Below are positions 10,227-17,239 of a stretch of DNA of 48,151 bases, piece after piece. Below the pieces are notes generated by a model. It saw only the letters and a program-made list of their open reading frames with translations. It was not told the origin of the DNA and searched no databases. Source of the DNA: a virus (lineage: Duplodnaviria > Heunggongvirae > Uroviricota > Caudoviricetes). Location: positions 1-48,151 of the IMG/VR virus record IMGVR_UViG_2617270976_000012. The stretch is one strand, 5' to 3'. The number at the start of each line of letters is the position of its first letter. The first letter of the stretch is position 1. The translations under genes and the position numbers were made by a program.

Positions 10227-10560
10227 GTTAAGCAATATCGTTTTATTTCCTGTAAAAGAGGATGACCCGCGTAATCAGGTTAATTTTCTTTATGAGCCAT
10301 CGGAAAGACCATACTGCCATCACGCCTCTGTCCGGGTTGATGAAAAAGAGCGTCAGGTCCGCTGTAAAATCTGCGGCGCAGTTGTGGAGCCATTTGACTG
10401 GATGCTCTCTGTGGCGAAAAGAGAAACCAGACTGGCAGATGATGTAAGGCTATTGCGTCAGGAGGAACGGGAAAGACGGAAAAATATAGAAAAGCTAATT
10501 CAGATTGAGCGTAACGCGAAAGCGCGGATACGCAGGGCGACAAAATCCAGAACTGAATAG
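10204..10560 (+). CDS. Hypothetical protein with putative zinc ribbon
   Basis: 118 aa; C-x-H...C-x2-C cluster (CHHASVRVDEKERQVRCKICG); basic C-terminus. Confidence 0.5.
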   Translation: MEIKPEDELSNIVLFPVKEDDPRNQVNFLYEPSERPYCHHASVRVDEKERQVRCKICGAVVEPFDWMLSVAKRETRLADDVRLLRQEERERRKNIEKLIQIERNAKARIRRATKSRTE

Positions 10561-10655
10561 TTAAATTTAGAACTGTTAAAAATTTAATCCTTAGCCGGAG
10601 GGATTTCTGCACCCTCAGAACATCAGGAGGCCGCCAGAAAGAGCGGTAATGAAAA

Positions 10656-11081
10656 ATGACTGAATTAACAAAAGAGCAATTAATCGAAGAAGCCAAATTA
10701 AAAATAGCGATTGCGAAATGCCATCCCAATTCAGGCGTGGCACGAGTAGAGGGTGAGTTATTCAAAATTGCACTGACATCGCTGGAAGCAGAACCGGTGG
10801 CATGGACTGACGACGAGGAACTGCGAGATATTGAAAAATATGGGTTCGGTGAGATATTTCAGCGTCCGTCAGATAAATATGAGGCTTCGCGTTGTGTTAC
10901 TCCATTGTATCGCATGCCGCCAGTGCCTGTAGTACCTGAAGGACTGGTTAAAGCTGTGCACTTCTATGAACAAGTAAAACGTGAGAATCCGCCAGTTGAG
11001 ACTGGAGCGTGGAAAGACGCTGTTGACTGGGTACTCAAAGAGGTTTGTCAGGTTGTAAACATTCGCATCAAAGGAGAATGA
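10656..11081 (+). CDS. Hypothetical nin-region protein (paralog of the gene at 11595-11939)
   Basis: N-terminus MTELTKEQLIEEAK...ALTSLEAEP parallels [14 protein letters not shown]...ALASLAAEP of the downstream gene; C-terminus IRIKGE. Confidence 0.5.
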   Translation: MTELTKEQLIEEAKLKIAIAKCHPNSGVARVEGELFKIALTSLEAEPVAWTDDEELRDIEKYGFGEIFQRPSDKYEASRCVTPLYRMPPVPVVPEGLVKAVHFYEQVKRENPPVETGAWKDAVDWVLKEVCQVVNIRIKGE

Positions 11082-11082
11082 G

Positions 11083-11598
11083 ATGGCGTTAACACACCGC
11101 GAACTCTGTCAGATTGCGTACAGGTTCCTTAAGCGCAACGGGTTCAAGGTTTGCTTTCATGACCGCTTTGTTGCTGTAACCAGTACTGGAGAACAACCAG
11201 ATGCTATGGGATTCAGAAATTCAGCATCATGCCTGATAGAGGCGAAGTGTTCTCGTGCTGACTTGTTGGCAGATAGAAAAAAGCGTTTCCGTAAAAATCC
11301 CTCTCTTGGCATGGGCGACTGGAGATTCTTTATTAGTGAGCCGGGAATTATTTCAATTGAGGATTTACCACCTGGCTGGGGATTACTTCACGTTGTTAAC
11401 GGAAGAGTACGGAAAGTACATGGGTGGCCCAAGGGTAATTGCTGTTGGGGTGATCCTGACGATAAGCCATTTACTGGAAATAAGCAGGTTGAATGCGATT
11501 ACATGTTGTCTGCATTAAGGCGCATGGAGTTGAGGGGACACCTTAATGAAATATATGACGGTGTAATCGTTAATAAGCAAGAAGGAAGCGCGGCATGA
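11083..11598 (+). CDS. Putative PD-(D/E)XK-type nuclease
   Basis: 171 aa with D...E-x-K-like arrangement (PDAMGF...CLIEAKCS); coupled to neighbours. Confidence 0.4.
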
Positions 11599-11939
11599 CC
11601 ACTTTTACCAGAGAGCAGTTAATAGCTCACGCAGAGGAGACTATTGAAGCACAGAGACTGTGCATACCGGGCACAATCGACCATGACATCATCCGCACAT
11701 ATAAGATGGATATTGCTGTTCTGGAAATCGCACTGGCATCGCTGGCAGCAGAGCCAGCCGGTAAATTGCATGAATACAAACCAGTGGGACATCAGCGTCT
11801 GGTCGACGAGTTAACCATGCTGGTAAAGCAGTTAACCTGGCAACTGAGGAAAACGAAGCCGGACTGTAAATTGCCGGGTAAGGCGATGGACTACCTGAAG
11901 CGAAACGGACTGATAAGCGCAGAGGATGTTTTACGATGA
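11595..11939 (+). CDS. Hypothetical nin-region protein (paralog of the gene at 10656-11081)
   Basis: 114 aa; N-terminal similarity to the upstream paralog. Confidence 0.5.
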
Positions 11940-12230
11940 CCTGGCCTGAGGCATTCACAACGGTAGGGATCGCAATGGCGGTGGCGCTGGTGGTGTATTC
12001 GATTTGTCGCTGGGGATAAAAACGATTTGCGGGGAAAGGATAGTTAAGTAGAATTGCTGCGGGTGCTTGAGGCTATCTGTCTCAGGCATGAATACCAAAA
12101 GGCAGATAGAGAAAAGCCCCAGTTAACATTACGCGTCCTGCAAGACGCTTAACATTAATCTGAGGCTCAATCTATGAACGGCAAATCTAGGTTAGCCTCT
12201 TACGTGCCGAAAGGCAAGGAGAAGCAGGCT

Positions 12231-12386
12231 ATGAAGCAGCAAAAGGCGATGTTAATCGCCCTGATCGTCATCTGTTTAACCGTCATAGTGACGGCACTGG
12301 TAACGAGGAAAGACCTCTGCGAGGTACGAATCCGAACCGGCCAGACGGAGGTCGCTGTCTTCACAGTTTACGAACCTGAGGAGTAA
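12231..12386 (+). CDS. hokD: Hok/Gef-family type I toxin (HokD/RelF-like)
   Basis: MKQQKAMLIALIVICLTVIVTALVTRKDLCEVRIRTGQTEVAVFTVYEPEE matches Hok/RelF as recalled; in-frame upstream extension resembles a mok-type leader; GC hairpin at 12393-12415. Confidence 0.75.
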   Translation: MKQQKAMLIALIVICLTVIVTALVTRKDLCEVRIRTGQTEVAVFTVYEPEE

Positions 12387-13892: not shown

Positions 13893-14270
13893 GTGATGCT
13901 CATAGATTTGGTTTTACCTTACCCGCCGACGGTGAACACTTACTGGCGACGCCGTGGCAGCACATATTTTATCTCGGAGGAGGGAAAGCGTTATCGCCGG
14001 GCTGTGGCGCTTATTGTTCGCCAGCAGCGGCTGAAATTAAGCCTGTCCGGAAGGCTGGCGATAAAGGTGATTGCAGAGCTTCCGGATAAGCGTCGTCGCG
14101 ACCTGGACAATATCCTGAAAGCACCGCTGGATGCGCTGACGCATGCGGGAGTGTTAATGGACGATGAGCAGTTTGATGAAATCAATATCGTTCGTGGTCA
14201 GCCAGTATCTGGTGGACGTCTGGGGGTGAAGATTTACCCCATAATGCTTGAAGGGCAGGTCAAAAAATGA
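13893..14270 (+). CDS. rusA: RusA Holliday junction resolvase
   Basis: 125 aa, LPYPPTVNTYWRRRG...DLDNILKAPLDAL typical of RusA; start may be ATG 13896. Confidence 0.85.
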   Translation: MMLIDLVLPYPPTVNTYWRRRGSTYFISEEGKRYRRAVALIVRQQRLKLSLSGRLAIKVIAELPDKRRRDLDNILKAPLDALTHAGVLMDDEQFDEINIVRGQPVSGGRLGVKIYPIMLEGQVKK

Positions 14271-15088
14271 AACTGGAAGATTTACCGAAATACTACTCCC
14301 CAAAATCCCCCGGCCTGACTGATGCATCGGCCTCAACGTCGAAAGATGCGCTGAGTATCACTGATGTGATGGCCGCGCAGGGCATGACACAGAATCGGGC
14401 TGAGATGGGGTTTTCTGCGTTCCTTGGTAAAATGGGCATTAGTATGAATGACAGAGAGCGGGCAACAGAATTGCTGACAGAATATGCACTCAGTCGGTGT
14501 GATCGCGTGGCGGCGTTAAGAAAACTCCCGGCAGAAATAAAACCGGTAGTGATGCGCATTATGGCTTCGTACGCTTTTGAGGATTATGCCCGCAGCGCAG
14601 CGAGTAAAAAGCAGTGCCCTTGTTGCTATGGGGAAAAATTTATTGAAAGCGTAGTTTTTACAAACAAGGTCCAGTATCCGGATGGTAAGCCGCCGGTATG
14701 GGCAAAGTGTACGAAAGGTGTGTATCCGTCTTACTGGGAAGAATGGAAAAAAGTCAGGGAGGTGGTAAAAGTTGCCTGTCCGGAGTGTGGCGGAAAGGGT
14801 GAGGTTTCCACCGCCTGTAAGGATTGCCGTGGGCGTGGTGTCGCCATTCATCGTGAAGAGTCGGTAAAACGTGGTATGCCTGTTATCAGAGACTGCCAGC
14901 GTTGTGGTGGTCGTGGCTGTGAAAGACTACCATCAACGGAGGCATTTAATGCCATATGCAAAGTGACGAGTGCTATCACGCTTGATACGTGGAAAAAATC
15001 AGTGAAACGCTTTTACGATACGTTGGTGGTTCGGTTTGACATTGAAGAGGCATGGGCGGAGCGGCAGTTAAAGAGGGTAACGCGATAG
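14267..15088 (+). CDS. Q-like late-gene antiterminator (QuuQ-type)
   Basis: 273 aa, multiple CxxC zinc-finger pairs; ATGA overlap with rusA; followed by terminator hairpin. Confidence 0.65.
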   Translation: MKLEDLPKYYSPKSPGLTDASASTSKDALSITDVMAAQGMTQNRAEMGFSAFLGKMGISMNDRERATELLTEYALSRCDRVAALRKLPAEIKPVVMRIMASYAFEDYARSAASKKQCPCCYGEKFIESVVFTNKVQYPDGKPPVWAKCTKGVYPSYWEEWKKVREVVKVACPECGGKGEVSTACKDCRGRGVAIHREESVKRGMPVIRDCQRCGGRGCERLPSTEAFNAICKVTSAITLDTWKKSVKRFYDTLVVRFDIEEAWAERQLKRVTR

Positions 15089-15168
15089 TGTTGTTGATTT
15101 TTCCCGAATCTGTGGTAAATTTGCTCTAACGATGGGCGTTTTATGCCTGACGTTAGAAGATTTTTTAC

Positions 15169-15194
15169 ACCCCGCCGCCTGGCGGGTTTTTTAT
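15169..15194 (+). terminator. Rho-independent terminator downstream of Q (tR'-like)
   Basis: CCCGCC-GCCT-GGCGGG hairpin followed by TTTTTTAT. Confidence 0.5.
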
Positions 15195-15314
15195 GACTGA
15201 AATCGCGTCAGTACAGTAAACGCGCTGGTGGCGGTGAATACCTGTCTTTCAGCTTGCTGGCTTTTTCGACAAGAGTTATTGGTGTGTCACGTTAACCGGA
15301 AAAGGGAAAAAGAC

Positions 15315-15512
15315 ATGCTAAAACAGCAGGATATGACAGAAACCGCCAGAGTGGTGTTTAATGAATTAAGCGTCACCGAACCGGCGACCGTCGGGGAGAT
15401 TGCGCAGAATACTTACCTTTCACGCGAACGCTGCCAGTTAATACTGACCCAGCTTGTTATGGTGGGTCTGGCAGACTATCAGTGCGGTTGTTACAGACGC
15501 CTTCAGTCCTGA
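15315..15512 (+). CDS. Small hypothetical protein
   Basis: 65 aa from MLKQQDMTETARVVFNEL...; AAAGGGA RBS; no family recognised. Confidence 0.35.
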   Translation: MLKQQDMTETARVVFNELSVTEPATVGEIAQNTYLSRERCQLILTQLVMVGLADYQCGCYRRLQS

Positions 15513-15645
15513 AGGCTTTTTATTTGTGGTGAATGGGCGGCTGGTGGGGGGCGACACCTGTCAGTCCTTTGCTTATGTGTTGATGATAATTTACCTTTTG
15601 GGGCTATAATTGAGCTAACCAATTGCTAATGAAAGTAAAATTATA

Positions 15646-16359
15646 ATGGCTGTTGTCTGTTCAGTTATCATGGTTTGCTCCCCAATTAATATTTTTCTTG
15701 AAAAGGATACGTTGTCACTTAAGCCAGGCTCAGTTGTTCTGGCCACCAAATGCATCAGGGAGCTTTTCCTTATGCATTATGGCAAAGTTAAAATTGTCGA
15801 TATAAGCGAATCCGTCGTAAGTCAATATCTGGAAAGTCAGCATAAGCTGACGAGGACTCGTCTGACTGACATTCCGCTTTACCTGTTGCTGGAACCCAAC
15901 AATCCTGCGTTGGCTGCGGCTTTAATTACCAGCCAGGGATTTTCCGGAGAGGCCACGGATATGTTTCTTATGATGGCCTGCCTGTCTCTGTTTGAAACAG
16001 ATGAACGGATGTCATTGTTTTTAAGTGGATGTTTATCCAGCATAAGTGCCAAAGTCAGGGCGATAATTCAGACAGATATATCAGCAAGCTGGACGCTTTG
16101 TGCGATTGCTCTACAGTTGCATATGAGTGAGAGTTTGTTAAAGACAAAACTGAAAAATGAAGGGGGCATGTTCAGTCGCTTGTTGCTGGAAGAGCGGATG
16201 CGTGTTGCTGTAAATATGTTATGTTCCCGGCATGGATATGGACAGGCTATAGCAGAAAAATGCGGTTATTCAAGCAGGTCCTACTTTATTTCTGTATTTC
16301 ACCGCTATTATGGCTTCCCGCCAGACAGATATGTATCCAGGCAAGGGCTTGATTATTGA
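15646..16359 (+). CDS. AraC-family transcriptional regulator (moron)
   Basis: 237 aa; C-terminal AraC-type HTH (...SRSYFISVFHRYYGFPPDRY); AT-rich relative to flanking phage genes; own upstream AT-rich region. Confidence 0.7.
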   Translation: MAVVCSVIMVCSPINIFLEKDTLSLKPGSVVLATKCIRELFLMHYGKVKIVDISESVVSQYLESQHKLTRTRLTDIPLYLLLEPNNPALAAALITSQGFSGEATDMFLMMACLSLFETDERMSLFLSGCLSSISAKVRAIIQTDISASWTLCAIALQLHMSESLLKTKLKNEGGMFSRLLLEERMRVAVNMLCSRHGYGQAIAEKCGYSSRSYFISVFHRYYGFPPDRYVSRQGLDY

Positions 16360-16387
16360 TTTTCATCTGATTATTATTTTTTGGCTC

Positions 16388-16463
16388 GGCCCTTTAGCTC
16401 AGTGGTGAGAGCGAGCGACTCATAATCGCCAGGTCGCTGGTTCAAATCCAGCAAGGGCCACCA
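16388..16463 (+). tRNA. ileZ: tRNA-Ile2 (anticodon CAU, ileX/ileZ-like)
   Basis: 76-nt cloverleaf folded by hand: acceptor GGCCCTT/AAGGGCC, anticodon loop CTCATAA, TTCAAAT T-loop, 3' CCA; close to E. coli ileX as recalled. Confidence 0.8.
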
Positions 16464-16470
16464 TCACATA

Positions 16471-16547
16471 CCGCCATTAGCTCATCAGGAAAGAGCGCCA
16501 GCCTTCGAAGCTGGTTGCGCGGAGTTCGGATCCCCGAAGGCGGTTCA
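16471..16547 (+). tRNA. argN: tRNA-Arg-like (anticodon UCG), imperfect stems, possibly degenerate
   Basis: Perfect anticodon arm CCAGC-CTTCGAA-GCTGG; D-arm TAGCTCATCAGG...GAGC; one mismatch each in T-stem and acceptor stem; 3' end TCA not CCA. Confidence 0.45.
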
Positions 16548-16560
16548 TTATCTGTATCCT

Positions 16561-16637
16561 GCGTTGTTAGCTCAGCCGGACAGAGCAATTGCCTTCTAAG
16601 CAATCGGTCACTGGTTCGAATCCAGTACAACGCGCCA
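16561..16637 (+). tRNA. argO: tRNA-Arg (anticodon UCU, argU/argO-like)
   Basis: Acceptor GCGTTGT/ACAACGC, anticodon loop CTTCTAA, T-loop TTCGAAT, 3' GCCA. Confidence 0.8.
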
Positions 16638-16807
16638 GACTTATTTTTCCCGGCTCGCTTTTGCGGGCCTTTTTTGTATCCGCGCCACGCCCGGCGCATA
16701 TCAACCACAGAGCCTTTCGGGGGTGAGCTTACGGAGTGGTCAGTGTGACTTTCTCTGTGGGCAGATCGCTCCCGGGCGTTGGCTCACCCACCCAAAGGAA
16801 CGTCACG

Positions 16808-17239
16808 ATGTTTGGTATTTTTGGTAAAAAAGCCCGCCGAGCGGCAGTGGAAATTAAAAAGTTTGAGAAACGTGATCTGGCACAGGCGGTTATTAATGCT
16901 GCCTATCTGGTGGCCTATGCAGATGGTGAATGTGAGGCTTCAGAGAAAGCGAAGATCGAGCAGGTCTTGCGTAACCAGCCTGCGTTGTCCGCGTTTACGT
17001 CAGAAATTAATGCGATTAGCGCAACCATTATCGGTCAGCTGGATACGAACTTTAAAATTGGTCGTCGAGCGGCGTTACGTGAGATCGAGGATGTGAAACA
17101 CGATACGCGTGAAGCGGAAGACGTGCTGGATGTGGCGGTGGCCATTGCCGAAGCAGACGGCGAAATAGAGCCGGAAGAGCGCAAGGTGCTGGAAGAGATT
17201 GCCGGTGTTCTGGGCCTTCGTCTGGAGAATCATCTGTGA
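16808..17239 (+). CDS. TerB-like (tellurite-resistance TerB fold) protein
   Basis: 143 aa from MFGIFGKKARRAAVEIKK...; acidic helical protein with TerB-like pattern; family call by recall only. Confidence 0.45.
   Translation: MFGIFGKKARRAAVEIKKFEKRDLAQAVINAAYLVAYADGECEASEKAKIEQVLRNQPALSAFTSEINAISATIIGQLDTNFKIGRRAALREIEDVKHDTREAEDVLDVAVAIAEADGEIEPEERKVLEEIAGVLGLRLENHL

Follow-up and report, generated by a model that had tools for sequence, protein, structure and literature searches.

The 237-aa AraC-type gene considered here, carried behind the late antiterminator gene Q on a 48,151-nt stretch of Caudoviricetes DNA (positions 1 to 48,151 of IMG/VR virus record IMGVR_UViG_2617270976_000012; hereafter the window), is, judged by its sequence, an ortholog of PsrB (prophage-encoded secretion regulator B), i.e., of a regulator already known and experimentally characterised. 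We think it likely that the gene product is an AraC/XylS lysogenic-conversion activator, carried as late-region cargo of a defective lambdoid prophage and acting on gadE/hdeAB, hence on acid resistance. A sequence-only reading of the same DNA had recognized Q, a strong terminator, a 65-aa open reading frame (ORF65) and the AraC-type gene, and had suspected a prophage regulator of the acid-resistance or virulence kind whose targets could not be read from sequence. All four elements lie where it placed them, and the regulator is of the kind suspected; on the targets that reading was too cautious, because hdeA and gadE can be inferred from the identity to PsrB together with identical recognition helices.

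Assignment to PsrB

The protein scored above the Pfam cut-offs with both AraC-type helix-turn-helix (HTH) models (HTH_AraC, PF00165, E = 7.8e-12; HTH_18, PF12833, E = 5.8e-10), and its double HTH is intact; lack of a functional HTH was one outcome that the sequence-only reading had said would overturn it. The AraC regulators described in the literature for prophages of enterohaemorrhagic Escherichia coli (EHEC) include PatE (Z0321), PsrA and PsrB (Z2104) (PMC10877973). The EDL933 copy of PsrB, also of 237 aa, is encoded in the OI-57/CP-933O prophage, at ydfJ in the closed genome, and the window protein is collinear with it and 98.3% identical in amino acid sequence over all 237 residues. The four differences from Z2104 (A103V, C152G, H196Y and I202V) all fall outside the predicted recognition helices (residues 162-171 and 211-222), both of which are identical to those of PsrB. 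The identity of Z2104 was checked with its published primer pair (PMC4763077), which gives the published 158-bp amplicon in EDL933 OI-57 and in the window; Sp4 yields no product. Sakai ECs1087, named psrA by the laboratory that described the psr family (PMC13502914), is 90.3% identical to the window protein when read from the conserved upstream ATG, and PsrB and PsrA, at ~90% identity to one another, fall with the window protein in one 90% cluster.

A neighbour-joining tree pairs the window protein with PsrB inside a Psr clade, answering the phylogenetic comparison with GadX, GadW, AppY and PatE-type regulators that the sequence-only reading had proposed. The sister clade holds PatE and AraC-like genes of lambda-like phages (36-40% identity), with GadW, YdeO, AppY, EnvY and GadX lying outside (27-34%). 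The NCBIfam equivalog cut-offs for the chromosomal regulators were not reached, at 108.6 bits vs. 348 for YdeO (aligning residues 1-229) and 87.4 vs. 500 for GadX. The DNA-binding domain matches the GadX DNA-binding domain structure 3mkl both by sequence (42% identity, E = 6e-19) and by fold (template modelling score, TM, 0.88). In the AlphaFold2 (AF2) model the predicted local distance difference test score (pLDDT) is 81-95 for the DNA-binding domain and 41-71 for the N-terminal domain, the latter too low to judge whether there is a fatty-acid pocket like that of Rns or ToxT. The present annotation, 'helix-turn-helix domain-containing protein', can become 'PsrB-like AraC-family regulator'.

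The psr gene is under purifying selection: the pairwise ratio of nonsynonymous to synonymous substitution rates (dN/dS) among four alleles was 0.22-0.43, below 0.45 even between alleles with dS of ~0.2 (L004, a low-quality assembly with indels, was left out). In EDL933 RNA-seq data from 11 conditions, Z2104 was above background in 12 of 13 columns, at low read counts (1-37), and the downstream genes Z2105 and Z2106 were mostly silent, a pattern compatible with a promoter independent of late transcription. A pseudogene with no transcript in related strains, the other outcome that would have spoken against the sequence-only reading, is not what we observe: the EDL933 ortholog is transcribed, and an intact coding sequence (CDS) was annotated in 40 of the 40 cassette records (see below) that were sampled across the ranking.

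Cassette structure and spread

Homology to the Shiga toxin 2e (Stx2e) phage phiP27 ends at 15582 and that to phage Stx2a_1447 at 15548, and both resume at 16384. Both phages share with the window the terminator tR', ORF65 and the tRNAs, and in both a 1059-nt DNA methyltransferase gene replaces psr; prophages of Salmonella and Citrobacter likewise carry a pair of an ORF65-like gene and a methyltransferase gene before the holin. The sigma70 promoter-like element upstream of psr moves with the gene, its TATAAT being invariant in all six of the alleles compared, down to 86% nucleotide identity. From the breakpoints, the methyltransferase replacement and this promoter-like element of its own, we therefore take psr to be a discrete cargo cassette of ~800 bp.

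The module from tR' to the tRNAs is common to Sp4 and OI-57 at ~94% nucleotide identity, with homology beginning at the terminator and with differing antiterminator modules, and one Stx2k phage carries the whole module upstream of tRNAs and stx2k. Strain A34 has a diverged psr cassette (86% nucleotide identity) directly 3' of tR', with no small ORF between. Window segment 15310-16857, comprising ORF65, psr, the three tRNAs and the 5' end of TerB, is absent from the potC-adjacent prophage of EDL933 (L005 16988-16990), where the alignment indicates a deletion.

The cassette was found in 726 of the 5426 complete E. coli genomes (~13%), at 1325 places, with a median of two and a maximum of four per genome. 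No matching record covers less than 80% of the query, and identity to it reaches 99% or more in 595 records. The exact window protein was found on 252 contigs in the protein collection.

The AraC gene has a GC content of 0.437 (0.450 at third codon positions) and the spacer upstream of it (15513-15645) 0.406, vs. 0.50-0.55 in the flanks and a window mean of 0.529 (standard deviation, sd, 0.052). This bears out the sequence-only description of a clearly AT-richer gene with an AT-rich upstream region; in the GC profile suggested there, the gene is ~1.8 sd off the mean and among the lowest 4.5% of 714-bp windows, so the AT-richness is real but moderate. The term moron, also used there, fits in part: composition and presence/absence polymorphism agree with it, the promoter-like element may do so, and an own terminator is missing. 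The terminator scan found none directly after the AraC gene, where a tRNA cluster begins 29 nt past the stop codon and the next terminator is at 16652. The sequence-only reading noted neither these three tRNA genes nor the fact that the strong terminator upstream belongs to a lambda-type pR'/tR' unit.

Proposed function and alternatives

According to two reviews (PMC10877973, PMC8565820), PsrA and PsrB lower type III secretion by raising GadE and YhiF; PsrB in addition increases acid survival and binds directly to the promoters of hdeA (-132 to -45) and gadE. Given 98% identity and identical recognition helices, these published targets can be inferred for the window protein. The window matches the chromosome of E. 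coli S1-CAM-01-A (NZ_CP145714.1; human stool, Switzerland) at 100% identity, as a lambdoid prophage integrated between potB and potC. The acid island of this host runs hdeAB-hdeD-gadE-mdtEF-gadW-gadX-gadA; between hdeA and hdeD, and again between hdeD and gadE, its intergenic sequence matches that of K-12 at 100% identity. Activation of this island is the most likely function of the gene.

We envisage the following course. In the lysogen, transcripts from the late promoter pR' would halt at tR', and what little PsrB is made would come from the gene's own promoter (~15583-15610). Through its C-terminal HTH pair PsrB would bind to and activate two AT-rich promoter regions, those of hdeA (-132 to -45) and gadE, and so raise GadE, the HdeAB chaperones and the genes for glutamate-dependent acid resistance; in strains positive for the enterocyte effacement locus (LEE), raised GadE, with YhiF, would lower type III secretion. 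Upon prophage induction, Q-modified polymerase would additionally pass tR' into ORF65, psrB, the tRNAs and the lysis genes.

Several points weigh against this proposal. The role of this allele in this strain is extrapolated from sequence identity and the published work on PsrB, and what is said here of PsrA and PsrB function draws on two reviews and a single paper from 2026. The psr genes were described (Tree et al., via the reviews PMC10877973 and PMC8565820) as associated, within one prophage, with Pch regulators and with effector loci of the type III secretion system (T3SS); unlike that context, the annotated genes of the window prophage include no nle, esp, pch or other PerC-family gene. 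This absence concerns an association, not a molecular property of the PsrB-like protein. In the host, an IS903B element breaks up the acid island on its dctR (yhiF) side and truncates yhiD (L014 3786-5877); slp-dctR(yhiF) is no longer adjacent, with dppBCDF there instead, and dctR(yhiF), one of the two reported Psr-induced regulators, may be missing or relocated. Finally, the start codon of the 237-aa form has no clear Shine-Dalgarno sequence, whereas GGGAG stands 9 nt upstream of the internal M43, from which Sakai annotates a 195-aa psr form. Residues 1-42 are nonetheless kept down to 37% identity in PatE and contain an M-x-x-x-CSVI motif common to GadW, YdeO and AppY, and we therefore prefer the 237-aa form.

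The state of the prophage raises the question whether the gene is a silent or decaying passenger, conserved merely through recent acquisition. The LexA-type repressor is in two pieces, cro and the S49 head-maturation protease gene are frameshifted, the potC-adjacent prophage of EDL933, with its 94%-identical Q, has lost exactly 15310-16857, ORF65 is frameshifted in Sakai Sp4 and in K_EC180, and read counts for the EDL933 ortholog are low. We nonetheless regard a passenger as unlikely, since the ORF is intact here and in all of the sampled genomes, dN/dS stays low even between diverged alleles, the EDL933 ortholog is transcribed above background, and PsrB has published phenotypes (PMC10877973). 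It is highly improbable that the gene serves mainly as a phage late function expressed through Q antitermination in lytic growth, for example to reprogram the dying host or to control the tRNA/lysis region. It does lie inside the pR' late unit, where it follows tR' and shares its strand with the lysis genes, with no terminator of its own before the tRNAs. Yet a conserved promoter-like element travels with the cassette, uninduced EDL933 transcribes the ortholog while downstream late genes are silent, the published phenotypes were obtained in lysogens (PMC10877973, PMC8565820), and the slot tolerates an unrelated gene, the DNA methyltransferase.

A protein of the same fold might also have a different regulon, its main targets in this background lying not in the GAD island but among other AT-rich promoters silenced by H-NS. 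Pleiotropy is known from this subgroup of AraC regulators, e.g., from AppY (PMC10057817), and such a shift could be accommodated by the allele's four differences from PsrB, by an N-terminal domain with a low-confidence model and by the prophage's lack of effector or pch context. We judge it quite improbable all the same: the recognition helices are those of PsrB, the known target DNA is unchanged in the host, and the chromosomal regulators nearest to it, GadW, YdeO and GadX, each act on the GAD island. Returning to PsrB as an activator of acid resistance, we find its allele in a degraded prophage without effector cargo, in a human stool isolate, and the cassette in about 13% of genomes, which suggests that its benefit (acid resistance) is independent of effector or pch cargo on the same prophage. 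The locus adds one more data point to a known theme, the insertion of prophage-borne AraC-type regulators into the acid-resistance network of E. coli.

The surrounding late transcription unit

Positions of the features in and around the psr cassette, and of the damaged prophage genes, in window coordinates
Feature	Position	Strand	Basis and remarks
Late antiterminator Q, lambda-Q homolog	14267-15088	+	273 aa; Pfam Antiterm PF03589, E = 5e-51; PHROG 127
Predicted late promoter pR', lambda-like	15094-15133	+	-35 TTGATT 15094-99; -10 TAAATT 15116-21
Putative pR' start and pause element	start ~15128; 15128-33	+	start inferred; sigma70 pause element AACGAT
Intrinsic terminator tR'	15171-15192	+	terminator scan; stem CCCGCC/GGCGGG 15171-15186, six G-C pairs, loop GCCT, T6 15187-15192
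ORF65, small HTH protein	15315-15512	+	65 aa; PHROG 331, E = 7e-37; phiP27 L23; Z2103 by position in EDL933
Terminator-like hairpin and T-run over ORF65 stop codon	15499-15524	+	terminator scan; -11.1 kcal/mol, z = -2.25
psr cargo cassette (promoter-like element and gene), ~800 bp	~15549-16383	+	homology breakpoints
Sigma70 promoter-like element, ATGATA-16 nt-TATAAT	15583-15610	+	promoter scan; 10/12 consensus matches; 36 nt 5' of ATG
Putative psrB ortholog, AraC/XylS regulator	15646-16359	+	237 aa; N-terminal domain residues 1-~130
Predicted double-HTH DNA-binding domain of psrB ortholog	16045-16344	+	residues ~134-233
Promoter-like element, TTGATT-17 nt-TATTAT	16349-16377	+	promoter scan, consensus match alone; overlaps psr 3' end, upstream of tRNAs
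tRNA cluster ileZ (CAT, annotated tRNA-Ile), argN (TCG), argO (TCT)	16388-16637	+	ARAGORN, Rfam, RefSeq annotation
Intrinsic terminator after tRNA cluster	16652-16679	+	terminator scan; -14 kcal/mol
Split LexA-type repressor and frameshifted cro and S49 protease regions	5055-6028 and 28817-30135		L001 9966-10939 and 33728-35046; defective-looking prophage

Q is 30% identical to lambda Q, with an extra zinc-finger insert of ~66 aa, and the EDL933 prophage with the 94%-identical Q is the potC-adjacent one, of CP-933N type. Directly after Q, the pR' region reads GGTAAATTTGCTCTAACGATGGG in the window and GGTAAATTTGACTCAACGATGGG in lambda, and the alignment preserves GGTAAATTTG....AACGATGGG, through the -10 and the sigma70 pause-inducing element; we accordingly predict that this segment acts as a promoter. 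The pR' alignment and the homology of Q to lambda Q together mark the G-C hairpin that follows as the equivalent of tR', and the RNA from 15128 to 15195 folds at -21.9 kcal/mol (z = -2.9). Without Q, pR' would give only an RNA of ~65 nt, ended at tR', and the downstream plus-strand genes, including the AraC gene, fall within the Q-dependent late transcription unit.

The short transcript itself (15128-15192, plus strand) would in lysogens be a two-hairpin RNA, with lambda 6S RNA and the Shiga toxin phage small RNA (sRNA) StxS as analogues. We considered it as a candidate for the 66-nt prophage sRNA HnrS and rejected it: the HnrS signature, a perfect complement to the last 15 nt of mazF, was not found in the window or in four related loci, and the plus-strand RNA has AGAAG rather than its complement. 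An Rfam scan of 15100-16380 gave no match.

Purifying selection also acts on ORF65 (dN/dS 0.15-0.28), for which 256 homologs were detectable in Enterobacteriaceae, in Escherichia, Shigella, Salmonella, Klebsiella, Citrobacter, Buttiauxella and others. A 94-aa version with a GTG start, proposed by the ORF lister, was rejected, its extension having a stop codon in phiP27 and not being conserved. The AF2 model is a three-helix HTH (pLDDT 71) whose best match in the PDB is PefI of the PapI family, not significant at TM 0.63, and all of its Foldseek matches have E of at least 0.2; by sequence, a PDB search yielded nothing meaningful, and a weak TrmB match (E = 0.0044) stayed under the Pfam cut-off. 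PADLOC returned no defence-system match for ORF65 or the PsrB-like protein.

Across Enterobacteriaceae prophages ORF65 is located just after tR', and its usual 3' neighbour is a DNA methyltransferase gene; beside psr it may carry a frameshift (Sakai Sp4, K_EC180) or be missing (A34). In Stx2e and Stx2a phages and in Salmonella and Citrobacter prophages it is accompanied by an N6/N4 DNA methyltransferase (L016 2645-4051, L017 2635-4041, L022 4001-5395 and L025 4001-5891), which looks like a conserved small-regulator-plus-methylase pair of the late operon. It is ORF65, and not the AraC gene, that is the unexplained element of this locus. One tentative idea, to our minds rather unlikely, is that it is an uncharacterised late-region controller of the slot cargo, similar to C proteins or to PapI/PefI, and that it might here modulate psrB or the tRNA/toxin region; in that event the phage would control how much PsrB lysogens make, by a route that has yet to be described.

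We further observed that the psrB-like gene has 11 rare codons (five AUA, one AGA and five AGG; 46 per 1000), and that two of the adjoining tRNAs match such codons, ileZ for AUA and argO for AGA.

Other prophage genes

The late region has the layout of a typical Shiga toxin phage without stx, in the order DUF968, RusA, Q, small ORF, AraC-type gene, three tRNAs, TerB, DUF3927, NanS-like esterase and lysis genes. Between the DUF3927 and NanS-like esterase genes lies a full-length match to the sRNA STnc100 (Rfam RF02076, 145.6 bits, E = 1.9e-33; window 17475-17684, plus strand). The nin region carries a restriction-modification pair, a DNA cytosine methyltransferase with a type II restriction endonuclease of the NgoMIV family (window 10373-12383; L001 15284-17294). 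Between the genes for lysis and terminase are two convergent overlapping genes (window 22548-24177; L001 27459-29088) with the annotations 'sce7726 family' and 'beta family protein'; they match the PADLOC models cll (E = 4e-31) and PD-Lambda-2_C/beta (E = 4e-32), and may be anti-phage defence cargo.

Comparison with known systems

The best full-length structural matches of the window protein model are the fatty-acid-responsive regulators Rns, CsvR and ToxT (Foldseek E ~1e-8), at only 16-20% identity and TM of ~0.4 and with an N-terminal domain modelled at low confidence. GadW, GadX, YdeO and AppY (chromosomal and DLP12) have the same two-domain architecture as the window protein and all feed into gadE; they share only 27-34% identity with it, and on this evidence it should not be considered an ortholog of any of them. 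PatE (Z0321/ECs0287, in CP-933H/Sp1) and the AraC-like genes of Lambda_2G7a and ev099 are prophage-borne, full-length homologs with the N-terminal M-x-x-x-CSVI, at 36-40% identity, and PatE likewise activates hdeA and gadE (PMC10877973). The Lambda_2G7a gene lies, as in the window, between Q and the holin, whereas PatE and ev099 gp29 are placed not behind Q but at the prophage's tail-fibre/attachment end; all belong to a separate clade from Psr.

PsrA occupies in Sp4 the same slot as the window gene, between the antiterminator and ileZ-argN-argO and directly upstream of the tRNAs, with TerB and esterase synteny. The two proteins differ at 23 positions, among them T167I and R211W, which fall within or beside the recognition helices, and Sp4 differs from the window in its frameshifted ORF65 and in a CAAX-protease gene between Q and the module. 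The psrA locus is given inconsistently: reviews have it as Z1789 in OI-50/CP-933N, whereas PMC13502914 has ECs1087 in Sp4; in the original annotation Z1789 is a 'putative envelope protein' followed in the list by Z1793, and the potC-adjacent prophage of the closed EDL933 genome has no psr. This conflict may reflect an inconsistency of assembly or nomenclature.

The prophage of PsrB itself, OI-57, has two tRNAs to the window's three, a DUF1133-type antiterminator instead of a lambda-Q-like Q of 273 aa, and a different integration site, ydfJ rather than potB/potC; the window prophage is without pch or nleG cargo. Around the regulator the two nonetheless agree, with ORF65 upstream and with tRNA-Ile, tRNA-Arg, TerB, DUF3927 and the esterase downstream.

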